From the NCBI GenBank assembly GCA_024280475.1, contig JAJRQA010000035.1, positions 5,414 through 69,413 of the forward strand: DNA of 64,000 bases. Reading direction: 5' to 3'. The translations under genes were made by a program, and so were the position numbers. The notes beneath the pieces were generated by a model. That model did no database searches. It saw only the letters and a program-made list of their open reading frames with translations, and was not told the DNA's origin. The DNA is from Alphaproteobacteria bacterium. Lineage in GTDB: Bacteria > Pseudomonadota > Alphaproteobacteria > Rhizobiales > JAKIUO01. Positions within the stretch are counted from its first letter, which is position 1; every line of letters starts with the position of its first letter. Shown one piece after another: positions 20,843 through 48,557 of this stretch.

Positions 20843-22142
20843 TCAAAGCCATCGCGCTCAATCCAAAACAGCTCCCTCCCACCGCAAATCCTTCCTGAAG
20901 GGAAACTCGTCGCTATTGGCCATGTTTATCCTTGGCTTCATTGCCGTGTGGATGCTGTCTGGTGAGATTGTCGTGGGCGGCAGTGATACGGACAAAGTCC
21001 CCCCGATCGCCAGCCAGGAAAACAACGATAGCTCAGGCGGTAGCTCACAAGACAGCGCAAGCGGCGCTTACTCAATTGCATCAGGACCAAGCACGCAGAC
21101 AGACACGAAAGAAGCTGCGAAAGTCAAAAAACTGTTTACGGTCCGGGCCAGGCTGTTCATCTCGCGTCCTCGCCGCGAAGTGTTGCATATTCGTGCTCGT
21201 AGCCAGGCAGATGTCAGTGTTGAAGTGCGGGCAGAGACCTCTGGTCGCGTCGTGAAAATTCTGGTTCGCAAAGGAGATTTGATTAAACAGGGCCAGGTTC
21301 TTTGCAAACTCGATGAAGGCGCAAGGCAAGCAACCCTGTCGCAGGCCACCGCACTCCTCGCGCAGACCAAATCCGACTATCTCGCAGCGGCCAAACTTTC
21401 CAGAAGGGGCTTTTCCGCAAAGCTCAATGTGAATGCCAAGAAAGCGGCTTATAATGGCGCGATGGCCAGCGTAAAAAAAGCGCGGATCGATCTCGATTTC
21501 ACGTCGATCAGAGCGCCTTTTACGGGCATAATAGAAGAACAGTCCGCCAAAGTCGGAGATTATCTATCTGTTCTGACAGCCGGAAAAACCTGCGCAAAGC
21601 TTGTAAAGCTACATCCTTTGCTGATTGTCGGCGACGTTTCAGAACGCAATATCGCCAAACTCACGGTCGGACAAAAGGGCCGCGCCGAACTGGTCACGGG
21701 TGAAAAAGTACGTGGCCACATCCGTTTCATTTCCCCATCGGCCAAAGTCGAAACACGCACGTTTCGCGTTGAACTGGAAGTCGACAACAAAAAACTCAAA
21801 ATGAGAAATGGCGTGACATCCGACATTTATGTGCCGCTCAAATCCACCATTGGCCACCAGATTTCCCCAGCCTATCTGACCTTGAACGATGCGGGAGAAG
21901 TGGGAGTGCGCTCTATTGGCAAGGGTAATATTGTGAGGTTTTTACCAGTTAAAATACTCGAACAGGGTAAAGCCGGTGTTTGGGTTGCTGGTCTGCCGCA
22001 AAAAATCATCATCATTACAGTCGGCAATGACTATGTTGTCGATGGGCAAAAAGTACAAGTGGTGATGGATAGGCGAACCGGCCTCAAACGAGGTGCCAGT
22101 GGCATGAAAAATCATGGAGCCTCAAAACATGAACGCTCTTGA
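20835..22142 (+). CDS. RND efflux periplasmic adaptor (membrane fusion protein)
   Basis: N-terminal TM, VRAETSGRV, IRAPFTG, ETRTFRVE; AAGGAG RBS. Confidence 0.9.
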   Translation: MSDQSHRAQSKTAPSHRKSFLKGNSSLLAMFILGFIAVWMLSGEIVVGGSDTDKVPPIASQENNDSSGGSSQDSASGAYSIASGPSTQTDTKEAAKVKKLFTVRARLFISRPRREVLHIRARSQADVSVEVRAETSGRVVKILVRKGDLIKQGQVLCKLDEGARQATLSQATALLAQTKSDYLAAAKLSRRGFSAKLNVNAKKAAYNGAMASVKKARIDLDFTSIRAPFTGIIEEQSAKVGDYLSVLTAGKTCAKLVKLHPLLIVGDVSERNIAKLTVGQKGRAELVTGEKVRGHIRFISPSAKVETRTFRVELEVDNKKLKMRNGVTSDIYVPLKSTIGHQISPAYLTLNDAGEVGVRSIGKGNIVRFLPVKILEQGKAGVWVAGLPQKIIIITVGNDYVVDGQKVQVVMDRRTGLKRGASGMKNHGASKHERS

Positions 22143-25100
22143 AGCCATATTGCGGCGTCCACGATCCGTCCTCACCATGATGGTCGTCATGGTGATCGCC
22201 GGTATTTTTACCTATATCAACATTCCCAAAGAGTCTGACCCCGACATTGATGTGCCGGTTTTTTATGTCTCGATCGTCCACGAGGGCATCTCCCCTGAAG
22301 ATGCGGTGCGATTACTGATCAAGCCGATGGAAACAGAGTTACGCGGACTAGATGGCTTGAAGCAGATCACGACAACAGCTTCGACCGGTCATGCGGCCAT
22401 TGTGCTTGAGTTCAAAAGCGACATCGATCATGACGAGGCTTCAACCGATGTGCGTGAAAAAGTCGATCAGGCCCGCTCCAAACTGCCATCGGACGCCAAA
22501 GAGCCCACCGTCAACGAAATCAATTTCTCGCTCGCCCCCATTATCGCCGTGGTGATTTCGGGAGATGTGCCAGAGCGCACGCTCTACCGCCATGCGCGCC
22601 GCCTTAAGGATCAGATCGAAGCTATTTCCACCGTGCTGGAGGCGAACCTTACTGGTCACCGCGAAGAACTGCTGGAAGTGGTGATCAATCGCACGGCGCT
22701 TGAGAGTTACAATATTTCCCAAGAGCAGCTCGTCAACGCCGTCGTGCGCAACAATCAGCTGATCACCGCTGGCTTTATGGATGCCGGAGAAAATGGCGGC
22801 GGTGGCAGCTTTAACGTCAAGGTGCCGGGCCTGTTTGAAACGGCCAAAGATGTCTACGACCTGCCGATCGTCTCCACGAGTGACGGGGTCGTTACCCTCC
22901 AGGATGTTGCGGAAATAAAGCGCACCTTCAAAGACCGCACCAATTATTCACGCTTTAACGGCAAACCCGATATCGCCATTCAGGTCGTCAAGCGCCTTGG
23001 CACCAATGTGGTTGAAAACAGCGTCAGGGTTCGTGAAGTGGTCGAGGCTTTCACCAAGGACTGGCCCGAGGCCATCAAGGTTGATTTCGCACTTGATCAG
23101 TCTACATCTGTATTCGAAATTCTCAATTCCCTGCAATCCTCCATCATGACGGCCATTGCCCTTGTAATGGTGGTGGTAGTGGCCGCGTTGGGCATGCGCT
23201 CCTCATTGCTTGTTGGTCTGTCGATCCCCGCATCGTTCATGGTCAGCTTCTTGATCCTTGGACTGATGGGACACACCCTCAATATGATGCACATGTTCGG
23301 CATGGTGCTAACCGTTGGGATTCTGGTGGACGGCGCAATTGTCATTGTCGAATATGCCGATCGAAAAGTCGCCGAGGGACTGCATCGACGAGAGGCCTAT
23401 ATTCTAGCCGCCAATCGCATGTTCTGGCCCATTGTCAGCTCAACCGCTACGACCCTTGTGGCGTTCGCACCAATGATCTTGTGGCCCGGCGTGGCTGGCA
23501 AATTCATGTCCTACCTGCCGTTTACTGTGATCATTGTGCTGTCCGCCTCGCTGCTCACAGCCATGATCTTCTTGCCCGTACTTGGCGGCTTGCTGGGACG
23601 CAATAAAATCTCGAACGAAGATGCTCAATCAGCCAACCAGCTAGCGGGGGGCTCGCATGTTGACTATGATAATATCCGCGGCATGGCAGGCACCTATATT
23701 CGCTTGCTGGAGCGCCTTGTAAGACATCCTTTCCTCGTTTTACTCGCCAGCGCGCTGGTCGTCGTTGGCGTGTTTTTGAGCTTCCAGAAACTCGCCGCTG
23801 GCGTCGAGTTTTTTGTCGATACCGAACCAGAACAGGCTTTTGTGTTTGTATCTGGTCGCGGCAATATGTCGGCCAAGGAAAAATTTGACCTGGTGCTTGA
23901 AGTCGAAAAACGCGTCCTTGAGGTCGGGGGACTCAAATCGGTATTCACAACCATCGGCACCGTTGGATCTGGCAACCAGTTTGATGGTGGCGGCGCTGAT
24001 CGCCCAACCGATCTAATTGGCCAGCTCATTTTGGAACCGGCCGACTATAATCTGCGTCGCAAGGGCAAAGCCATCCTCGAAGAAATCCGCAGCAAAATGG
24101 TCAATCTTCCCGGCATTGTCGTCGAGGTCCGCAAGAGAGAAGAAGGCCCGCCCACCGGCAAGGATATCCGCCTGCAAATAACGGGAGGCAATCTTGCGTA
24201 AGTGGAAGAAACAACAAGGCGCGTGCGTAAATATTTCGATGAACAGGTCACCGACATTCGCGATGTGGAAGACAGCACCCCATTGCCCGGCATTGAATGG
24301 GTACTCGACGTGGACCGCAAAGAAGCGGCGCGCTTTGGCACCGATATCTTGTCGGTTGGCTCAATGATCCAGCTCGTCACCAATGGTTTATTGATTGGCA
24401 CCTATCGCCCCGATGATGCGGAAGATGAAATCGACATAAGAGTGCGCCTGCCCCGCGGTGAGCGCACCATAAACCAGCTTGATCAGTTACGCGTTGTAAC
24501 CAAGAACGGTCCCGTTCCCCTGACCAATTTTGTCACCAGAAAAGCCCAGCAAAAAGTCAGCTCTATCACCAGAAGAGATGGCCGCTACATGATGTTGGTA
24601 AAAGCCAATGCAGCCAATGGCGTTTTGGGTGGCGATAAAATAGCGCAGATCGACAAATGGCTCAAACAGCAAACCTGGCCCACAGATATTGATCTCGTAT
24701 TCAAGGGTGCCGATGAGGATCAAAAGAAATCAGGCGAGTTTCTGGTCAAGGCCATGATCGGCGCACTGTTCATGATGTTCATCATTCTAGTGACCCAGTT
24801 CAACAGCTTCTATCAAACGGCCATCACCTTGCTCACCGTTATGCTGTCGCTTGTTGGCGTGCTGATCGGCATGATGGTCACAGGGCAGTTGTTCTCGATC
24901 ATCATGACCGGTACGGGCGTTGTGGCGCTGGCCGGGATTGTCGTCAACAATTCAATTGTGCTGATTGATACGTTCAATCATTTCCACAAGGAGTTGAAAA
25001 TACCGGTTGTGGATGCGGCCCTGCGTGCCTCGGCGCAACGTCTGCGACCGGTATTACTCACCACCATTACCACCATATGCGGCCTGGCTCCCATGGCCCT

Positions 25101-25368
25101 GCAAATCAATCTCGACTTTTTCAACCGGATTGTGCAGCTAGGATCGGTAACCTCGATCTGGTGGGTGCAGCTTTCAACCGCGATCATTTTCGGTCTCGGC
25201 TTTGCAACCATATTGACGTTGATTTTAACCCCGACACTACTCACGATGCCAACCATCCTGAAGCGCAACTTTGTACGCAAAAAAGCGCTGCGAAGACGCG
25301 GCAAGAGGGCCGCCATTCAACCAAAGACAATGCCACCCTTGCAAGAAATGCCTAAAGCTGCAGAGTAG
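22129..25368 (+). pseudogene. RND permease (AcrB/AcrD/AcrF family) interrupted by a single in-frame TAA at 24199-24201
   Basis: ORFs 22114-24201 and 24202-25368 share one frame. Joined they give about 1079 codons with GILVDGAIVIVE and GIVVNNSIVLID...RLRPVLLT motifs. Confidence 0.8.
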
Positions 25369-34085: not shown

Positions 34086-34120
34086 AAAAAGGGTTGGACC
34101 ATATGGCCCAACCCTTTTTT
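34086..34120. terminator. Bidirectional Rho-independent terminator
   Basis: AAAAAGGGTTGG-ACCATATGGC-CCAACCCTTTTTT. Confidence 0.85.
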
Positions 34121-34156: not shown

Positions 34157-34804
34157 CTAATGACGGGTTGCGTAGCAACCTTCAAAAGCATGTTCGAGCA
34201 ACTGATCGCGGATGCCTTCAATCTCAATAACAACCGGTTCCTTGGCCCGAGCGGGCGTAACATTGCGAAAGCGCGATTTTGGAATATTGGTACTTGCCGA
34301 CCAAAGCCCCAGAAAAGCAGAGCGGCCAAGGTCCACCGCATTGGCGCCCACGCTCTCAAACAAATCAAGCGAAAACCTCACATCAGCTGCGCGGCGCATT
34401 GCATCGCCGGACCAACAATGATCCGTTCCCAGTACCAGCTGCTCATGGGCATCCAAAAGCGCTGGGTTTTTCGCCCAACGAAGAGAGGCATCAAGACAGT
34501 TTTGTCCATTATACATGCCTGCCATTTCCACAAAATCAGCAAATACAGAAGCTGGTTCGATACTGGCAAAAATCACTCGCAACTCAATGCCCCGATCAAC
34601 AAAGGCATTGGCATGACGGCGTACGGCATGTGTCACGGCGCTATCTGGAGAGCGAGCGATCAATGTCACTCTCAAATCCTCACTGGAAGCGCTCGATCCT
34701 TTTTCAATCTTGCTTATATAGGATAAAATAAAATCATCGAAACGCTTAATCGTTTCTCTGCGATGAAGTTCGGCTTTAGAAGAAAATTGTGAAAGCAAAC
34801 TCAT
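34157..34804 (-). CDS. Hypothetical protein, possible degenerate PLD-like fold
   Basis: GAGGA RBS; 215 aa; DAHEQLVLGTDHCWSGDAM resembles the HxKxxxxD-x6-GS spacing without the Lys. Confidence 0.75.
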   Translation of the reverse strand: MSLLSQFSSKAELHRRETIKRFDDFILSYISKIEKGSSASSEDLRVTLIARSPDSAVTHAVRRHANAFVDRGIELRVIFASIEPASVFADFVEMAGMYNGQNCLDASLRWAKNPALLDAHEQLVLGTDHCWSGDAMRRAADVRFSLDLFESVGANAVDLGRSAFLGLWSASTNIPKSRFRNVTPARAKEPVVIEIEGIRDQLLEHAFEGCYATRH

Positions 34805-34946
34805 TCGCGCGTTCCTCGTCTCAATATCGGAAAATAATCTGGAGCGACGGAATGCAGAAAAATCGGTGTCGCCTTCGTTTAACCAATGTGCGCCCTGACG
34901 GTAAAAAAGGTTTTAACGCTTCACTGAATAATTTCAGAAAACACCA

Positions 34947-34986
34947 ATAAAAATTACAAGTAATTGATATTACTTGTAATTTTTAT
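34947..34986. repeat. Perfect 18-bp AT-rich inverted repeat containing an IHF-like site
   Basis: ATAAAAATTACAAGTAAT-TGAT-ATTACTTGTAATTTTTAT. Minus strand contains TATCAA-TTAC-TTG (WATCAANNNNTTR). Confidence 0.7.
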
Positions 34987-35012
34987 AATAAAATTTTTTA
35001 CTTTGCAAAACG

Positions 35013-38000
35013 CTACTTTTTGTCGCGATTTGGGCTAAATCGCTTTGCCAAACTCTGCGCCTTCAATTCTTCAGACGCTTCATCGAGGAATTCATCTCCC
35101 TTCAAAAAGTCTGGCATAGCGCCTTCCTTAAAATCATCAGCCTCTGAGGGCTCGTCATATGAGCCTTTTGGCTTGGCGTTCATCTGCGCCATTAGCATTG
35201 AACCAAGATCCTGACTGGCCTCTCCAGGTCCCAAGATCACGGGGTCCGTCAACGGTCTTTGCCCAGAGGCCTGGTCGTTTTTGGCAATGGTCTCATTACT
35301 GCGACCCATTGCGCGCGCTTGCAGTCCTTGCTTTAATTCCGCGATACGCGCAGACACCGGGTCTTTACTCAAACGATCAGATTGCTCTTGCGCTTCGAGG
35401 GCCGATTGCGCCTTGGAGCGCTGCTCGCTCCTGGAGGGCAACAAACTATCTTCGTTGACCTGACGCTCACGGGTCTTTTCCTTTTCACCCGCGCTCAATC
35501 TCGAAAGGATCGATGTCGCGGATTCGTCCGGTTTGGTAATGGGCTTAACAGCAACGAAAGGCTCGTCTTCTTGCGCGTCCTTATCGCTTGCTACGGGTTC
35601 AGGGGCGCTAACGCTCGCTTTAAAAAAGCCGCTTTCTTCGCTCTTGATCGACGGCACCGGCTCAACCTCCAAAGGAGCTGCCGAAAGACCTTCGTCAATT
35701 TTATTGTCAGAACCATCGATGGGGTCCGCATTCAGATCATTGCTGTCGCCATGATCTTCGAGCAAATCCAGTGAAGCCGCTTTACCACCATCACCTAAAG
35801 AAGGCTCGGTAAGGTCGCCAGCTTTTGTGCGCGCAAGCGACGTACTGCCATCAGCAGTCTTTTTGCCAAAAGATAAAAATCCGCCAAACATTTTCGACAC
35901 TACGCCCGATGTTTTTTGTGGCTCAATGACAATGGGCTCACCAGGCACGGCAACCTGTTCTGCAAAGACCTGTTTGCCAATGCGGTCGCTATCACTTTTC
36001 GCGATAAGGTCAGCAAGCTGCTCTCCTGGCACTTCCACACCAGCGATGCCTTCAAAATGGCTCCGTAAGCCGCGATTGGCCCTGCTAATAGCAGCTGGCG
36101 ACATCTCGCGGATCGTGATAATTTCAGCGTCATCCGCCGCTTCTTTATTGATAGGAGATCCAGCCCGTTTAGCGGCTTCCATTGTGACTGTTTTTTCCGT
36201 TTTCAGTCTTTCGATCTCATCTTTCGCCAATCGCAGTTCCTGTTCGCGCTCTTGCTCCTCACGCTCTTTTAACTGCTGGCGCTGGCGTTCGCGCTCTTCA
36301 AGCCGGACCTTTTCAACAGCGACTGCGATGTCGCTCTGCGCCGAAACGGTTTCTGCATTATCATTCAGATCGCCGCTCTCTTGTGAACGTTTGACGGCTT
36401 CCATAATGAGATCCAGCACCATCTGGCTTTGCGTATCAGCGACCTTGCGGAAACGATAAACCCGATATTGACGCCCTTGTGCATAATAGCGGCTATCATG
36501 GCGTTTCAATTGGGAACGCACAACACTCTGCAAAGGCCATATACTGGCCAGGTGTAAAATACCGTTGGCCTCCAGGCTGATGCACAGATTAGAAAGAAAC
36601 CGCGATTCCTTAGCAATATCATGGGTATATCCGGTGGACAATTGCCCCTTGATCTCGTCGCGCTCCAGCTTGAGATTGATGGTGCGTTTCTTTTTCAGCT
36701 CATCTATTTCTTTTTCAATCGTGACGATCCGCGCCAAGGGCCCGGCAAGTTTGTCTTCTTGTCTTTGCAAAAGCTTGAAATAGGTCGTGGTTTTTTCCAG
36801 CTCCCCGACAACTTGAACAACGTCGGCACGCCTGTTGAACTCTTCTTCCGTGTCAGTTTGATAGCTTGCGCGAAGCTGTTTGCTGCTGGTAATCAACATA
36901 TTGTGGCTGCGGCAGGTGTCAGCATGCTCGCGCGTCAGCTTTCTGGCTTGCAGTTCCTCGTTCTGGATTTTGAACGAGACCAGCCCCGCCATTTCCTTTT
37001 CCAGACTTTTAATTGCCCGATCATAATCATCGCGCTCGGAACGGTAACCTTCTTCAATATTGCGGTCGAGGCGATCGCTCAGCAGCGCCTTTTGCGATCC
37101 CTTGACCAATGGCACCGCGAGATAGTAATCACGCCCATACTCGAATTCGGCATTGTGAAAGATTTCCAGCATTTCTTCGGAAATCTTGTTTTTATGGGCC
37201 TCGAAAATATCCAGCATCGTGCCGCCAAATTTACTGGCGCGAGCTCGTGAAACCGACGATTGAATACGTTGCAAATGATCATAGCTGCGATTGAGCGAAA
37301 TCAGCAATATACACAGATCGACAAAAACGGCAGCGGAAAGCGGAATATAGTCGCGCTTTGACAGGCCAGCATCAACATTGGAAACCTCGACCCTGCGCCC
37401 GGCGCTGATCGCCTGCTTGCGGGCCTTTCGCAACTCGTCGGGGCTGGGTGGCAATTTGAGGGTTGGCAAAGCAGCCAGTGTAACGGCAAGGCGCCTGAAT
37501 GCCTCGATAACGGCTTCGGATCCTTCCACTGCGGCGATCTTGGGGTTCTTGATTTCTGGAATATCATCTATCGCCCGCACAACGCCGCGCAGGGCCGTCT
37601 GCAACTGCACGTCTGGACAACGGAACGTGCCACCGCGGCCAGTGGGGAACTGGGTTGTACTGGCGCGCTTGTCAAAATTATCACGAAACTGGCGCAATTG
37701 CGGATCAGTGCGCAGCGTATTAAAGCGGGCAATCGTCAAATCCAGTTTGCGGCCAAGAGCGCGTAAAAACTTGTTGCGGGTGCCGTCCTTGCCAATGGTC
37801 GAGGCGTCCCGGCTGACGACCTTTTTCAAATCACCATTGAGGGCATTAAGGTCGGTTTTAACCGTACTGGCGCGACCTGTTATATATTCAGCCGCATAGC
37901 CAAATTTTTGACTATCGCTATCGCGCAAACGCATGCGCGGCCCCTCGCCAGGTTTTGAATTGGGACAACTATTGCCGTGATCGCGCTCCTGGGTGGCTTT

Positions 38001-38798
38001 GCGCGTGGACAAGGTCGTCAATTGCACAAAGGTGCTCTGCAATTGTTCGAGCCGCGTCTGGCCGATCTGCAAGGCCACTTGCACTTGCGATACGGCACTT
38101 TCGGCGGAACGGGTCGCCTCCGTCTGGGCTTCAAGATATTTCCAGTAAAAACCAAAACCAAAGCCCACCGAAATCAGTGTCAGGAACAAATATCCAAACA
38201 CAAACAATGGCTTGATCCACGTAGGTGTCCCGCCAGCATAAAGACTATCGAGCAGGTAGAGGATCATCAACATCAGCATCATCACCGCAAAGCCAATGGC
38301 AATACGCGAGCCAATATCGACAGAACCAGAATTGGCCTGAATAAGCTCCAGCATCCCAGTGTAAGTGGCAAGCCAGGACAAAAAGGCCAGACCAAGGGTC
38401 AACGACGCCTTCACCGGATCAGCATAAAACCAGGCGCGGAAATTAAAAATATGGACTTTTTCGCTCTCGTCGCTATCGGCAGACACGCGATTATTGGCCA
38501 AATACTGATCATCGGTTTTAGCCAAAGAACCCGGCTGAGGACGAATATCGGCGACAAGAGGCTCGTGTCCAACATCTGCTGTAAGGGCATTTTGATCGTC
38601 TAACGAGGCTCTGGCCGATTTGCCGAGAGATAACTCATCAACGCGGCGATCAGCACCGCGCCTGTCGGAGGCAGGGTCATCACCAGCCTTTACAAGAATG
38701 GTTTCCTGACGCGCCGTATCCTTGCGTGAAAGGGGTTTTTCGATCCCGAAAATTTTTCGCAACAACCACTCAAGCACAGGAAAACTCCTTTGTACCAT
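35013..38798 (-). CDS. Large hypothetical membrane protein (3 TM + extracytoplasmic helical domain + TM + long coiled coil + acidic disordered tail)
   Basis: 1261-aa ORF with AAGGAG RBS. Hydrophobic segments near aa 130-220 and 485-500; E/R/K-rich helix near aa 830-870. Confidence 0.9.
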   Translation of the reverse strand: MVQRSFPVLEWLLRKIFGIEKPLSRKDTARQETILVKAGDDPASDRRGADRRVDELSLGKSARASLDDQNALTADVGHEPLVADIRPQPGSLAKTDDQYLANNRVSADSDESEKVHIFNFRAWFYADPVKASLTLGLAFLSWLATYTGMLELIQANSGSVDIGSRIAIGFAVMMLMLMILYLLDSLYAGGTPTWIKPLFVFGYLFLTLISVGFGFGFYWKYLEAQTEATRSAESAVSQVQVALQIGQTRLEQLQSTFVQLTTLSTRKATQERDHGNSCPNSKPGEGPRMRLRDSDSQKFGYAAEYITGRASTVKTDLNALNGDLKKVVSRDASTIGKDGTRNKFLRALGRKLDLTIARFNTLRTDPQLRQFRDNFDKRASTTQFPTGRGGTFRCPDVQLQTALRGVVRAIDDIPEIKNPKIAAVEGSEAVIEAFRRLAVTLAALPTLKLPPSPDELRKARKQAISAGRRVEVSNVDAGLSKRDYIPLSAAVFVDLCILLISLNRSYDHLQRIQSSVSRARASKFGGTMLDIFEAHKNKISEEMLEIFHNAEFEYGRDYYLAVPLVKGSQKALLSDRLDRNIEEGYRSERDDYDRAIKSLEKEMAGLVSFKIQNEELQARKLTREHADTCRSHNMLITSSKQLRASYQTDTEEEFNRRADVVQVVGELEKTTTYFKLLQRQEDKLAGPLARIVTIEKEIDELKKKRTINLKLERDEIKGQLSTGYTHDIAKESRFLSNLCISLEANGILHLASIWPLQSVVRSQLKRHDSRYYAQGRQYRVYRFRKVADTQSQMVLDLIMEAVKRSQESGDLNDNAETVSAQSDIAVAVEKVRLEERERQRQQLKEREEQEREQELRLAKDEIERLKTEKTVTMEAAKRAGSPINKEAADDAEIITIREMSPAAISRANRGLRSHFEGIAGVEVPGEQLADLIAKSDSDRIGKQVFAEQVAVPGEPIVIEPQKTSGVVSKMFGGFLSFGKKTADGSTSLARTKAGDLTEPSLGDGGKAASLDLLEDHGDSNDLNADPIDGSDNKIDEGLSAAPLEVEPVPSIKSEESGFFKASVSAPEPVASDKDAQEDEPFVAVKPITKPDESATSILSRLSAGEKEKTRERQVNEDSLLPSRSEQRSKAQSALEAQEQSDRLSKDPVSARIAELKQGLQARAMGRSNETIAKNDQASGQRPLTDPVILGPGEASQDLGSMLMAQMNAKPKGSYDEPSEADDFKEGAMPDFLKGDEFLDEASEELKAQSLAKRFSPNRDKK

Positions 38799-39097
38799 CG
38801 CTCCTTGCTATCATCGGAGGCGATGTTCCCGCGTATTCATATCGGTCAAAGACCGTATATGCATCAAGAAACCGAATAAAACAGGGGAAAACCGCGGCAG
38901 AACAGCTCAATAATGCTGCCTCGCCAGTCTTGCCCCCCAATTACACAACCATGTATATAGTCTGCCAATTAGGCTGTTTCGTGACTAATCCAAGTCTTTG
39001 AGGTGATCACCAATTGATCCAGCACGTCCCTCAATACCCGACCACAAATAGCACTCAATGACGTGTACGGGCAAGCGAAGGTGAATTTTGAGGCAAG

Positions 39098-41530
39098 TTA
39101 CTGTGTTTTATTGCCAAATTTTGGCGCTATCGCCGCTTGCACTGGCCTGGCCAGTTGTTCCAGATCCTTCATCAAAACACCCAATAGAGGGGCTGCCAGC
39201 TGGCTTGAGTGAAGACGATAGCCCAGCGGCTGGCTAACAGATCCAGATCCGATGAGAATGACATAAGAATAACTTTTGCCTGATGTAAACTGCACGCCGC
39301 CCGCAGTCCAAACATCAACGGTCGTATCGGCGTCGGCGGTGGTCTGTGTACCGGTTTTGGCAAAATGCAACTGGATATTTTTATGGCGGTTTGCGCACCA
39401 TTTGCTCTGGCTTTTAAGCGTGCCGTGCCGCTTGCCTTTGACTTCATAACAAAGCGGCGCCGATAACAATTTGCGCAACATGGCGCGCCCGGCCGGTTCG
39501 ATCACCCCGTCTGGAATGATATCGCTGGTGGTTTCAAGCTTGTTATATTCAGTGCTCTTGCGCGACGTTTGGGAGTGATTGGCGATAATAGTCGGCAGGC
39601 TCACGGGCTTTGATCCACGTCCGGTCAGAGAGGCAAGAATAACCGAGGCCAAATGGTGTACTTTTTGCGGACTGCCGGTGATCAGACCATGGGCCACCGC
39701 GGTCGAGGGCGGTGTTTCATCTTCTTTTTTCTTGGCAAAAGGCATATTAAAGCCAAACCGGTCAACGCTTTGGCGCACAACTCCCTGCCCCAGCTTGAAC
39801 AAACGATTGGCCAATGGCTGCGACATCGAGCATGCAAACACCGTCTCTGCACGCCGCAAGCGCCGATTACCACCTTTGCGACGGCAGGTTTCCAGACCCT
39901 TCCTTGGCGCATCGGTATCCAGATATTTACTGTCAGGCGTGTCCTCGCCATCATTGGCAATGAGGACGGCACCAATCATTTTGGCAACTGACGCGACAGC
40001 GCGCCCCTCGCGGTCACGTTCATAGCGCCCCGATAGCCTGTCTCTGGCCGGGCTGGAGCCAAAATAGTGAGCGTTTTGACCGGCTTCGAAATAGCGCACA
40101 ATTTTACCGTTCTCATCGGCGGCTGCAACAATAATGTCCGGCAGACGCTTGCCGCGTTTTCTGGCCAGAACGTCCAGCGTATAGCGTCGATCAAGCTTGC
40201 TGCGATATTTGCTATTGAGCTTGCCAAGCCTCTTGGCGAGTTTTTCGCGAAAGCGAATATTTTGGGCCGAGTTGAGCGTGAGGTCAACGCGGGCCACATA
40301 GTCACGCCATTCATGGCCATACAAATCCACCATTTCGGCCCGCGCGCCAAAACGGCTGGACGGGGCAAAATGATTGGCCCGGCGTACCGGATTATTACGA
40401 ATAACCCCTTGCGAGCGTGACAAAAGTTTTAACTCTGCTTCCTTGTCCGGGGCGAGTTTTGCTTGCGGCACATCTATGGACATGGTCGACAAGGCAATCG
40501 TCAGATTCTTTTCTTCTTGGCGATCAGCCACCAACGCCTTCACGCATCTTTGCGCCCGGATCGCCGTGATATGGCGCCAGTTGCGTAAACGCCGCTTGTT
40601 GATCCGTGGATTTTTGCTGGGCAATACCTGAATAGGCCGATTGACCGCTGCGGCCAACACAAATTGCTCGGCCCTGGTCATTTCACTTGACGGTTTACCA
40701 AAGATAATGCGGCTGGTGAGGCCAACGCCGTAAAGCGACCCGCCTACCCTTTGAGCCAGCGGCAGATGATTGGCGGCCCATTTTTGCAGCAATCCGAAAT
40801 CACCATCAGTGACCAGCTTGTACTGGATAATCGGTGCCAGCCACCATTCCGAGGTTTTGCGTTTCAGCTTGTCGAAATAGGTTTCTTTGCGAGAGGGCAA
40901 TGACGCGTAATAGCTGCGGGCCAACTGCATGGAGATCGTCGAGCCGCCGCCGCCGCTGGATTGGCCAAGTATATAGGAAATAGCCTTGCGCGGCATGCGC
41001 ATCAGGCCCTGCGGGTCGATGCCGTACAGATTGCCGAATTGAATATAGGGGAAGCCGGCACGCAAACTGATCATTGGCTTGCCGAGATTGCGATCTTCCA
41101 GATAGCGCAAGCAGGACCAGTAATGAGGAGGCACTTTGTCGACATGCTCCGATTTGTGATCGGGATAGGCGGTGAAGCTTTCCCATTCGATGGTTTTGGA
41201 AGAAGAGTTGAAATCGGGCTCCATACGCGGATCGAAAATACCCAGATAATCGCCGCGGGCACTATAAATACCAATCCCCTTTGAGCGCTGGTCAAAATAA
41301 TCAAGCTGCGGCTCCAACCATTTAAGAGCCATGGGAGCCCAGATCGCAGGAGCGGCATAGGCCAGCGTCAGGATCAGCAAAAACGAGCCGATACTATAAA
41401 GCACCAATCGTATCCAGAAACGGATATCAAGGATCAACTCCAGGACTGCTACCGGCAGGCGCATGAGCTTTGCTGGTGACTCAGCAAGGAATTCAAACAA
41501 ACGATTTATCAAGCGGATCGGATTCAACAT
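39098..41530 (-). CDS. Divergent class A penicillin-binding protein (GT51 transglycosylase + transpeptidase-like domain)
   Basis: TM anchor; GT51 motifs YLEDR, YGID, GGSTISMQLAR, RKTSEW, EQFVLAA; TP motifs SVAK, SMS (for SxN), KTGT. Confidence 0.82.
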   Translation of the reverse strand: MLNPIRLINRLFEFLAESPAKLMRLPVAVLELILDIRFWIRLVLYSIGSFLLILTLAYAAPAIWAPMALKWLEPQLDYFDQRSKGIGIYSARGDYLGIFDPRMEPDFNSSSKTIEWESFTAYPDHKSEHVDKVPPHYWSCLRYLEDRNLGKPMISLRAGFPYIQFGNLYGIDPQGLMRMPRKAISYILGQSSGGGGSTISMQLARSYYASLPSRKETYFDKLKRKTSEWWLAPIIQYKLVTDGDFGLLQKWAANHLPLAQRVGGSLYGVGLTSRIIFGKPSSEMTRAEQFVLAAAVNRPIQVLPSKNPRINKRRLRNWRHITAIRAQRCVKALVADRQEEKNLTIALSTMSIDVPQAKLAPDKEAELKLLSRSQGVIRNNPVRRANHFAPSSRFGARAEMVDLYGHEWRDYVARVDLTLNSAQNIRFREKLAKRLGKLNSKYRSKLDRRYTLDVLARKRGKRLPDIIVAAADENGKIVRYFEAGQNAHYFGSSPARDRLSGRYERDREGRAVASVAKMIGAVLIANDGEDTPDSKYLDTDAPRKGLETCRRKGGNRRLRRAETVFACSMSQPLANRLFKLGQGVVRQSVDRFGFNMPFAKKKEDETPPSTAVAHGLITGSPQKVHHLASVILASLTGRGSKPVSLPTIIANHSQTSRKSTEYNKLETTSDIIPDGVIEPAGRAMLRKLLSAPLCYEVKGKRHGTLKSQSKWCANRHKNIQLHFAKTGTQTTADADTTVDVWTAGGVQFTSGKSYSYVILIGSGSVSQPLGYRLHSSQLAAPLLGVLMKDLEQLARPVQAAIAPKFGNKTQ

Positions 41531-47132: not shown

Positions 47133-48557
47133 GTGCCCATGTTCCATGCCACGGACAAGTTACCAGCAGCCTTTGCTCGCCAGCTGACCCATAGATTTGT
47201 GCTCCTGCTTGCTGGCATGTTTATCATGTCAATAAGCCCGGCTGATGCTGCAGGGCGATATGCGCTGGTCATCGGCAATTCAGCCTATACAGGCAGTCCA
47301 CCTCTTAAAAACCCAAAAAATGATGCCGAGTTAATCGCCAAAACCCTTACAGAAGTCGGCTTTGAGGTGATCAAGGTTGTGGATGCAGATCAGCGCCAAA
47401 TGCGCCGCGCCATGCTAGATTTCAGCCGCATCTTGCGCAACAATCCTGACAGTATTGGCCTGTTTTACTATGCCGGACACGGCGTGCAGGTACGAGGTGT
47501 CAACTATATGGTGCCGGTCACTGCCGACATTAAAGACGAAGAGGAAGTGCGCTTTGAAGGCGTTGATGTCAACGACTTCCTTGGCACCATGCGCAGCTCC
47601 AAGAGCCGCCTCAACATAATCATCCTCGATGCCTGCCGCAATAATCCCTATGCCGGTTCCAACCGCTCGGGTACACGGGGGCTGGCTCCCGTGCAAGCGG
47701 CCAGCGGCACGCTCATCGCCTATTCAACCGCTCCAGGGGATGTCGCATTTGATGGCAATGGCATCAACAGCCCCTACACTCTGGCCCTGTCACGCTTTAT
47801 CCGCAAACCCGGTCTGGCGGTCGAGACCGTGTTCAAACGTGTCCTCGCTTCCGTTGAAGATGCCACCCAAAACAAGCAGACCCCGTGGCTGACCGGTGCC
47901 TTTCGCGGCGAATTTTATTTCAAAATGAAAGAACAAAAAGTAGCTCAACAAACAGCCACAACCGGAGACACAGCCGCCAATAGCAGTATGAAACGCTCAA
48001 GCGGTTCTGGCCCGGGCCTCGAAAAACTGTTTTGGGAGAGCATCGTCAATTCCACCAATACAGCCTCTTTCAGGGCCTATCTCACAGCCTTTCCATCCGG
48101 TGTTTTCGCGCCGCTGGCAAAACTCAAAATAGTGGAGCTTGAAAAGGCCGGCAAAAACATTGTTGTGGCATCCAAACCGCCCTCAACAACCACAACCGCC
48201 CGCACCGCGCAGCCTGAAGCTCCAAGCAATCCGCCCTCTATTCCCGTAAAGAAAAAAGCCAATATCCTCACCTATCGGGCTATTTTTCCCAACAGTTCGA
48301 AAAAACAGCTCAAACGAGCTGATGTGCAGGGGCTCTCTTGTCATAAATTATGGATCGCCCGCAATGAGATCTTTCACCGCAACGGTTATTGCTTCAAAAG
48401 CGAAAAAGGCATCCGCTATTTCAACAATTCCAATTGCACCTCCTCAGCCCCGAAACTGACAATGCTTGAGCAGCGCAACAAGCGCACCATCCGCACCTGG
48501 GAAATCCGCAAGCGCTGCTGGACCAAGCGCAAAAAGAGCGCAGCAACAGGCAGGTAA
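47133..48557 (+). CDS. Secreted caspase-like (peptidase C14) protein with C-terminal YARHG-like domain
   Basis: ALVIGNSAY, LKNPKNDA, FYYAGHG and ILDACRNNP (His/Cys dyad); C-terminal LWIARNEIFHRNGYCF. Confidence 0.88.
   Translation: MPMFHATDKLPAAFARQLTHRFVLLLAGMFIMSISPADAAGRYALVIGNSAYTGSPPLKNPKNDAELIAKTLTEVGFEVIKVVDADQRQMRRAMLDFSRILRNNPDSIGLFYYAGHGVQVRGVNYMVPVTADIKDEEEVRFEGVDVNDFLGTMRSSKSRLNIIILDACRNNPYAGSNRSGTRGLAPVQAASGTLIAYSTAPGDVAFDGNGINSPYTLALSRFIRKPGLAVETVFKRVLASVEDATQNKQTPWLTGAFRGEFYFKMKEQKVAQQTATTGDTAANSSMKRSSGSGPGLEKLFWESIVNSTNTASFRAYLTAFPSGVFAPLAKLKIVELEKAGKNIVVASKPPSTTTTARTAQPEAPSNPPSIPVKKKANILTYRAIFPNSSKKQLKRADVQGLSCHKLWIARNEIFHRNGYCFKSEKGIRYFNNSNCTSSAPKLTMLEQRNKRTIRTWEIRKRCWTKRKKSAATGR

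Follow-up and report, generated by a model that had tools for sequence, protein, structure and literature searches.

Penicillin-binding proteins (PBPs) of class A work with dedicated partners, including LpoA, LpoB, and CpoB in E. coli, a bactofilin that recruits PbpC in Caulobacter, and GpsB in Firmicutes. To our knowledge, such partners are known from few model bacteria, and we know of none for the hyphal, budding Hyphomicrobiales. A second described system is the pairing of a type I alpha-2-macroglobulin (A2M) gene with pbpC, a known association to which PMC5764988 assigns a proposed role in periplasmic protease trapping and wall repair. Here, we describe a three-gene locus in a 64-kb window of alphaproteobacterial DNA. 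The window is the whole stretch that was analyzed and corresponds to contig C85 of a host assembly of 3.79 Mb in 282 contigs. We refer to the three open reading frames (ORFs) as PBPx (810 amino acids [aa]), P2 (1261 aa), and P3 (215 aa).

The three ORFs are co-oriented on the minus strand, with exactly the coordinates and lengths given in a preliminary description of this DNA. PBPx adds a new and very divergent member to an enzyme class that is already known. P2 and P3 form a tight pair that is the evolutionary core of the locus, with P3 as a near-constant neighbor of P2. As a whole, the module is best described as a class A PBP together with accessory proteins that has a tie to the A2M-PBP1C system. 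The main features are listed below (TM, transmembrane).

39098..41530, minus strand: PBPx, predicted divergent bifunctional class A PBP of 810 aa (Pfam, AlphaFold, Foldseek, and motifs)
35013..38798, minus strand: P2, polytopic membrane protein of 1261 aa (ORF)
38427..38798, minus strand: P2 aa 1–124, predicted cytoplasmic N-terminal extension specific to the window's lineage (alignment, in which only one close relative, L003, aligns)
37284..38426, minus strand: P2 aa 125–505, conserved core with TM1–TM3, a predicted periplasmic helical domain of ~265 aa, and TM4 (alignments, model, and hydropathy)
36600..37091, minus strand: P2 aa 570–733, charged, helical, coiled-coil-like insertion within the conserved, predicted cytoplasmic domain (alignment and low-pLDDT model)
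35013..36362, minus strand: P2 aa 813–1261 plus stop codon, acidic variable tail (alignment and composition)
34157..34804, minus strand: P3, predicted cytoplasmic protein of 215 aa, uncharacterized family (ORF and alignment of 25 members)

The divergent class A PBP

The GT51 domain of PBPx is recognized by Pfam Transgly (PF00912) at 59 bits (cut-off 27; E = 5.2e-16), over profile positions 38–170 of 178 only. PBPx has no match to the Pfam Transpeptidase family (PF00905), a miss that is a measure of divergence and not a defining biochemical feature, and all of its NCBIfam scores are far under the cut-offs. A profile of 16 PBPx relatives matches only the GT51 portions of solved PBP1a chains in the PDB. 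An hhalign comparison with a canonical PBP1A-type class A PBP of the same genome also aligns the GT51 domain alone.

We modeled PBPx with AlphaFold using 64 relatives as input and obtained a model with a pLDDT of 87 and a pTM of 0.81. A Foldseek search with this model gives full-length matches over 700–800 columns, with E values of 2e-16 to 2e-11 at 12–16% identity. The top matches are E. coli PBP1b (3vma; 2.2e-16), S. aureus PBP2 (2olv; TMt 0.58), and A. baumannii PBP1a, and H. influenzae PBP1a is matched as well. The C-terminal half aligns with the transpeptidase domains of class B PBPs too. The predicted architecture comprises a cytoplasmic N-terminal helix, a TM anchor (hydropathy peak at aa ~38–65), the GT51 domain (~130–330), a linker (~330–460), and a transpeptidase-fold domain (~460–795). 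PBPx is thus like E. coli PBP1b, A. baumannii PBP1a, and S. aureus PBP2 in its two-domain fold with one N-terminal TM anchor. It also has in common with them both GT51 glutamates and the GGST, RKxxE, SxxK, SxN/S, and KTG motifs. It differs from them in its low identity to the solved structures, the PF00905 miss, and the partial GT51 match, and its six Cys contrast with the two of the canonical enzymes.

Conservation within the family follows these motifs. The glycosyltransferase residues E145, D146, GGST195–198, R224, K225, E228, N297, and P299, which we take to represent GT51 motifs 1–5, are invariant in 64/64 relatives, as are G170 and D172. The transpeptidase residues S514, K517, S568, K725, and G727 are likewise invariant in 64/64. 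At the third position of SxN, 49 of the 64 have N and 15 have S, with S in the PBPx of the window. In the AlphaFold model, S514 begins a helix (513–527) and KTG lies on a strand (719–729), positions as in canonical enzymes. All six Cys of PBPx are invariant in 64/64 relatives, versus two Cys in each of the canonical class A PBPs of the same genome. The loop inside GT motif 1 is lengthened, with ~20 extra residues in the window's lineage, and the cytoplasmic N-terminal helix is conserved, with R6, E13, and P19 nearly invariant. The preliminary description of PBPx as a very basic, Cys-containing protein with GT51 and transpeptidase motifs agrees with these data. Its pI of 10.06 does not distinguish it, however, because the canonical class A PBPs of the same genome are equally basic (pI 10.0–10.6).

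Its modeled fold and its motifs mark PBPx as a genuine class A PBP, though a very divergent one. Given this fold and the intact motifs, it very probably works as a bifunctional synthase. The host genome has PBPx as its fifth GT51 gene and also encodes four canonical class A PBPs, two class B PBPs, MreB, RodA, and FtsW. In this genome, mreB, rodA, and a PBP2-type gene lie together on contig C44, and ftsW and ftsI lie on C97. The PBPx family is limited to Hyphomicrobiaceae-type genomes, where named members are annotated merely as "transglycosylase domain-containing protein" or as generic PBP1A.

We also considered whether PBPx could be PBP1C or a recent copy of it and rejected this assignment. 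PBPx scores 38.2 bits against TIGR02073 (cut-off 494), and no UB2H, ODD, or BiPBP_C accessory domain was detected in it. The PBPx profile gives only 7.4 bits with the host genome's own PBP1C. Within the host genome, BiPBP_C (PF06832) is found in a gene on C122 only. Literature searches found no paper on the PBPx lineage, P2, or P3.

Linkage of PBPx, P2, and P3 and the A2M-PBP1C pair

PBPx loci were examined in the best 80 of 334 relatives, using species-representative genomes, and genome-wide distributions were counted in a sample of 301 genomes of the order. Since many assemblies are fragmented, adjacency counts underestimate linkage. PBPx is present in 42 of the 301 genomes and P3 in 61. The N-terminal domain of P2 is present in 53, comprising 51 with true P2, one with only a paralogue (see below), and one with a fragment. 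The distributions are nested, P3 being wider than P2 and P2 wider than PBPx. All PBPx genomes carry P2 (42/42) and nearly all carry P3 (40/42); the two without P3 are 90–91% complete assemblies of 580–770 contigs. At least 9 of the 301 genomes carry P2-P3 but no PBPx. The pair is also seen without PBPx at loci L086, L087, and L090 and in Rhodomicrobium-titled records. Both genes are found in records titled Hyphomicrobium, Filomicrobium, Rhodomicrobium, and Methyloligella, the first three of which are hyphal budding genera.

According to the coordinate tables, PBPx and P2 are directly adjacent in 24/42 genomes (23 co-oriented and 1 divergent). They lie 5.7–8 kb apart on the same strand in 7/42, all of family f38, and on separate contigs in 11/42. 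P2 and P3 are adjacent in 41/51 genomes, 9 of which have PBPx on a different contig. Among the best 80 loci, P2 is in the flank of 45 and P3 in that of 42; where at least 5 kb of downstream sequence is present (n = 67), the counts are 43 and 38. On the PBPx tree, PBPx-P2 adjacency is found in the deepest clades and its loss is clustered, with two Hyphomicrobium clades comprising 19 loci. The PBPx/P2 junction is a repeated break point, with insertions, an inversion, and separations in relatives.

As a control for general synteny, we took the 54 PBPx loci whose two flanks each extend for 8 kb or more, after dropping four close kin. P2 is kept beside PBPx in 35/54 of these loci and P3 in 31/54. 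The counts for the window's other neighbors are 0 of 54 for ccrM, DUF302, fmt, ZIP, and the peptidase gene, and 5 of 54 for mrp. The co-occurrence and shared neighborhood of PBPx and P2, which had been put forward as a check in the preliminary description, are borne out by these counts.

What lies beyond P3 in relatives ties the module to a described system. In the Filomicrobium locus, the gene after P3 encodes a 1776-aa A2M with a CAEQ thioester motif and Pfam matches to bMG3, bMG5, bMG6, bMG10, MG2, A2M_BRD, TED, and A2M. Of the 37 PBPx loci in which P3 is present with at least 2 kb beyond it, 27 have an A2M gene directly after P3; the other 10 include the window's three close kin. BiPBP_C, the marker domain of PBP1C, comes right after A2M in 4/4 genomes checked. 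Hyphomicrobium and Filomicrobium relatives carry a P2-P3-A2M-PBP1C string on one strand. We examined 10 genomes with a PBPx locus that lacks P2; P2 is found elsewhere in all 10, and in 8 of them it lies on the same strand as A2M, 7–8.5 kb upstream of its C-terminus. The H. zavarzinii record has the order P2, A2M, PBP1C. Where the string is broken, the break is between PBPx and P2, and P2-P3 remain with A2M-PBP1C. A2M is common in the order (228/301 genomes); its presence is therefore uninformative and only its position counts.

Compared with the type I A2M-PBP1C pair as known from E. coli (yfhM-pbpC), the relatives' P2-P3 lie directly upstream on the same strand, the A2M has CAEQ, and the PBP1C has BiPBP_C. 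The window differs in that the host genome's pair is off its contig, on C122 (A2M as a 1771-aa ORF with a CSEQ motif, and PBP1C as a 733-aa ORF with BiPBP_C), and in that PBPx is not PBP1C. P2 and P3 are not among the known parts of that system. The module, first presented as a candidate undescribed one, thus partly coincides with a characterized system, in that the relatives' version abuts the known type I A2M-PBP1C pair. The preliminary description was correct that no macroglobulin, SEDS, or mreB gene is present on the window's contig; the host copies are distributed over C122, C44, and C97.

The membrane protein P2 and its neighbor P3

P2 was described at the outset as a membrane protein of no recognizable family, and this holds: no family was found in Pfam, NCBIfam, or PADLOC, and a P2 profile gives only chance-level rows against PDB sequences. 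Against 1.84 billion representatives, the profile matches 754 clusters at E ≤ 0.001. The source names of the listed homologues are all "hypothetical protein," and none of them has a Pfam domain. The nearest named protein-atlas cluster is DUF4407 (PF14362; score 0.75), which we treated as a lead only. Like P2, the members of DUF4407 are membrane proteins in which a coiled coil lies between TM helices. The lead was not confirmed, as neither P2 nor its paralogue gives a hidden Markov model match at E up to 5 and the genome search with this family has no P2 match.

Hydropathy peaks of P2 lie at aa 159–190, 193–218, and 482–505, and the AlphaFold model adds a helix at about aa 128–157, giving four predicted TM helices. 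The pLDDT is mostly >88 for aa 120–450, where TM3 extends as a long helix into a helical domain that is followed by TM4. An alignment of 16 full-length members of the P2 family shows a conserved core of aa 125–565 and 734–812, and aa 125–505 are 52–58% identical across Hyphomicrobiaceae loci. The helical domain of ~265 aa (aa 222–485) is predicted to be periplasmic, because positive residues lie before TM1 and after TM4 and because it has two Cys, C278 and C394, that are invariant in two alignments. The tail (aa 813–1261) has a pI of 4.7, no conserved columns, a variable length, and no Pfam match. As modeled, P2 is a four-TM inner-membrane protein with a strongly conserved periplasmic domain, followed on the cytoplasmic side by a small domain that is also conserved (aa 506–569 and 734–812) and by the variable acidic tail.

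The insertion at aa 570–733 (20% D+E and 20% K+R) is present in the window's P2 and in L003 and is gapped in 14/16 aligned proteins. It includes a stretch at aa ~614–720 that is predicted, at low confidence, to form long helices. The "giant coiled-coil" character is therefore restricted to the window's lineage; other members are 790–1050 aa long, and Rhodomicrobium-type members are 619–730 aa.

A distant P2 paralogue of ~620–650 aa occurs in the same genomes. The host copy is a 643-aa protein on C216 (P0123; L082:5540-7471, plus strand) with 28% identity to P2 over the TM and periplasmic part and at least 60% conservation within its clade. It neighbors eipA, which encodes envelope integrity protein A, as well as a coiled-coil ORF and gcrA. 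The paralogue of family f38 is convergent and lies directly after P3. Among the listed relatives of the paralogue, those with a name are all "hypothetical," and none has a Pfam domain.

The preliminary description had also cast P2 as a scaffold or activator dedicated to PBPx, with the coiled coil as the link to the synthase in polar growth, budding, or the formation of hyphae. In the 301 genomes sampled, every PBPx is accompanied by P2, the two genes are adjacent in more than half of the PBPx genomes with the deepest clades included, and the conserved N-terminal helix of PBPx (R6, E13, P19) is a candidate docking site. The occurrence of P2 and P3 in hyphal, budding genera also favors this proposal. 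The genomes with P2-P3 and no PBPx speak against a dedicated role, as does a PBPx/P2 junction that is broken while P2-P3-A2M-PBP1C persists. The lack of the coiled coil in 14/16 aligned P2 proteins speaks against a coiled-coil link. Furthermore, the host keeps the MreB-RodA-PBP2 elongasome, so the polar-growth premise is weak and obligate polar growth is not implied. A passage of PMC10259793 gives mreB as absent from R. vannielii and H. nitrativorans and makes no reference to PBPs. We co-folded PBPx 1–470 with P2 aa 120–520, and the result (score 0.00, mark 0.32) is evidence neither way. Taken together, we regard a scaffold dedicated to PBPx as distinctly unlikely.

The concept behind the Lpo, CpoB, bactofilin, and GpsB systems suits PBPx, a class A PBP with a conserved cytoplasmic tail and an adjoining gene for a membrane protein that could place or activate it. 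P2 has no sequence or fold relation to any of these partners. It is polytopic and located in the inner membrane, which sets it apart from an outer-membrane lipoprotein or a cytoplasmic polymer, and it also occurs without PBPx.

P3 was listed in the preliminary description as an unknown. It falls in no Pfam, NCBIfam, or PADLOC family, and searches of Pfam and the PDB with 25 members gave no match for any of them. A hydropathy scan shows no TM peak. The alignment of the 25 members has a conserved block, AHEQLVLG...W.GD.MRR, and many members, including that of the window, end in TRH, which suggests that the conserved C-terminus is a recognition tag. The additional proposal that P3 is PLD-like came from a by-eye pattern, a layout resembling the PLD-type strand-helix-strand followed by an HxK motif. 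We could not confirm it, as P3 has H120-E-Q122 with no conserved K or D of HxK(x)4D and no PLDc_2 match. In the host genome, PF13091 matches a gene on C86 only, and hhalign of PLD against P3 gives a probability of 2.5%. The protein atlas offered DUF7931 as a lead (13% of one cluster), but hmmscan gave no match to it.

We also considered that P2 could be a membrane sensor of the chemoreceptor or TorS type with P3 as its cytoplasmic output, a signaling pair that merely regulates nearby envelope genes. The modeled topology, with TM3, a helical bundle, TM4, and a cytoplasmic domain, would suit a sensor, as would a P3 that lacks a TM peak and is nearly always next to P2. Foldseek rows to the McpS and TorS sensor domains appear for P2, but these are non-significant and at chance level (E 1.5–1.7). 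No kinase, HAMP, GGDEF, DNA-binding, or other output domain was found in P2 or P3, and we consider a sensor pair of this kind very unlikely.

Locus context and interpretation

We next examined the noncoding features of the locus, which are as follows.

38799..39097, minus strand: PBPx-P2 gap of 299 bp, with an AAGGAG ribosome-binding site 4 nt ahead of the P2 ATG
34947..34986, minus strand: A+T-only, 18-bp perfect hairpin directly 3' of the P2 stop codon, followed by a U-rich run (RNA fold)
34086..34119, minus strand: strong, terminator-like, bidirectional hairpin of 15 pairs, 7 of them G-C, with a T run, 38 nt past the P3 stop codon

By sequence inspection, plausible ribosome-binding sites precede both P2 and P3. 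A consensus terminator scan that requires G-C pairs found none on the minus strand within either intergenic gap. The A+T-only hairpin has a minimum free energy of -17.5 kcal/mol (z = -4.5) that none of 200 shuffles equals. It may serve as an attenuator between P2 and P3 or as a palindromic operator. The hairpin past P3 is likely the end of the transcription unit.

The surroundings in the window are housekeeping in character, with a ccrM-type methylase, DUF302, fmt, an ABC exporter, psd/pssA, mrp, recJ, and csp. We rejected a defense-island reading on the basis of this context (ccrM-type methylase, fmt, mrp, and recJ) together with PADLOC, which gave 0 families for PBPx, P2, and P3 at E up to 1. 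Elsewhere in the window, an AcrB-type RND pump is split over two adjoining ORFs (22114-25368, plus strand). The 695-aa ORF covers profile positions 5–654 and the 388-aa ORF positions 687–1016, a split that points to a frameshift, a stop codon, or an error in the assembly. A 474-aa protein with caspase (Peptidase_C14) and YARHG domains is encoded at 47133-48557 on the plus strand.

The recurrent neighbors of P2-P3 are class A PBP-type genes and the macroglobulin gene. We tentatively favor, at somewhat less than even confidence, a reading in which P2-P3 are an inner-membrane and cytoplasmic adaptor or sensor for periplasmic wall synthesis or repair, with PBPx as a local client. In such a scheme, P2-P3 would place or regulate periplasmic wall-building and wall-repair enzymes across the membrane. 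The client would be PBPx in the window's lineage; in Hyphomicrobium and Filomicrobium relatives, the type I A2M-PBP1C pair is encoded right behind P2-P3. PBPx would then be a client or companion enzyme and not the sole reason for P2.

Several observations weigh against this adaptor reading. The functional argument is drawn from gene context among related genomes only, and since these genomes are kin, the counts are not independent. In the window's family, A2M-PBP1C is on a contig other than that of P2 in 6/6 genomes. Family f38 has leuS and other housekeeping-sized genes between PBPx and P2, which are therefore not one operon there, and in the Rhodomicrobium-type genera g33 and g92, P3 is far from P2. 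The A+T-only hairpin past P2 may split P3 off transcriptionally. Foldseek against the PDB gives no match for P2 at E ≤ 0.001, and hence no structural relative that hints at mechanism.

A second control adds to these points. Using the Filomicrobium locus as reference (52 loci), an unrelated upstream block stays by PBPx in 35/52 loci and P2 in 34/52. Within the crown group, PBPx-P2 adjacency is thus no better kept than ordinary synteny, and because the block is kept equally often, inheritance of gene order may account for part of the adjacency. The block (L051:1910-7687), found in Hyphomicrobium and Filomicrobium, encodes a protein with a CAP (cysteine-rich secretory protein) domain, a protein of 486 aa that Pfam does not match, and a 1145-aa ATPase with two NTPase regions, one AAA/STAND-like and one HerA/FtsK-like. 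It may be a defense-type ATPase system.

These data bear on the possibility that the genes are neighbors by descent, PBPx being an ordinary, fast-evolving extra class A PBP, P2-P3 unrelated to peptidoglycan, and the gene order a relic. Besides the equally well-kept block, the restriction of all holders to one part of one order and the intervening housekeeping genes of f38 are consistent with it. Cross-tabulation of the upstream block and P2, however, gives 23 loci with both, 13 with the block only, 12 with P2 only, and 5 with neither; PBPx-P2 adjacency therefore extends into deeper clades than the block. Descent alone also fits poorly with the full co-occurrence of PBPx and P2, with the near-absence of the window's other neighbors from the loci of the first control, and with a P2-P3 pair that has a class A PBP-type gene next to it, on one side or on both, in lineages where other neighbors differ. 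We consider descent alone possible, if on the unlikely side.

A bolder version of the adaptor reading, which we consider rather unlikely, is that P2-P3 are a new trans-envelope organizer confined to Hyphomicrobium-, Filomicrobium-, and Rhodomicrobium-type Alphaproteobacteria. Here, the periplasmic domain of P2 would dock or activate PBPx, PBP1C, and the macroglobulin trap, and P3 together with the acidic tail would provide cytoplasmic control or reporting.

If the link is synteny only, the gain is the correct annotation of a hidden class A PBP family. Beyond this, the locus is a testable candidate set, made up of an orphan class A PBP lineage mostly missed by profiles and two conserved unknown families. 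Cultured holders exist, so bench testing is feasible; among them are Filomicrobium insigne CGMCC 1.6497, Hyphomicrobium sp. 2TAF46, with PBPx-P2-P3-A2M-PBP1C as one row of genes, and H. zavarzinii ATCC 27496, where PBPx is separate. The role of the widespread A2M-PBP1C pair is itself still a hypothesis. If P2-P3 are indeed an organizer, class A PBPs and this "periplasmic immunity" pair would gain an undescribed inner-membrane regulator.

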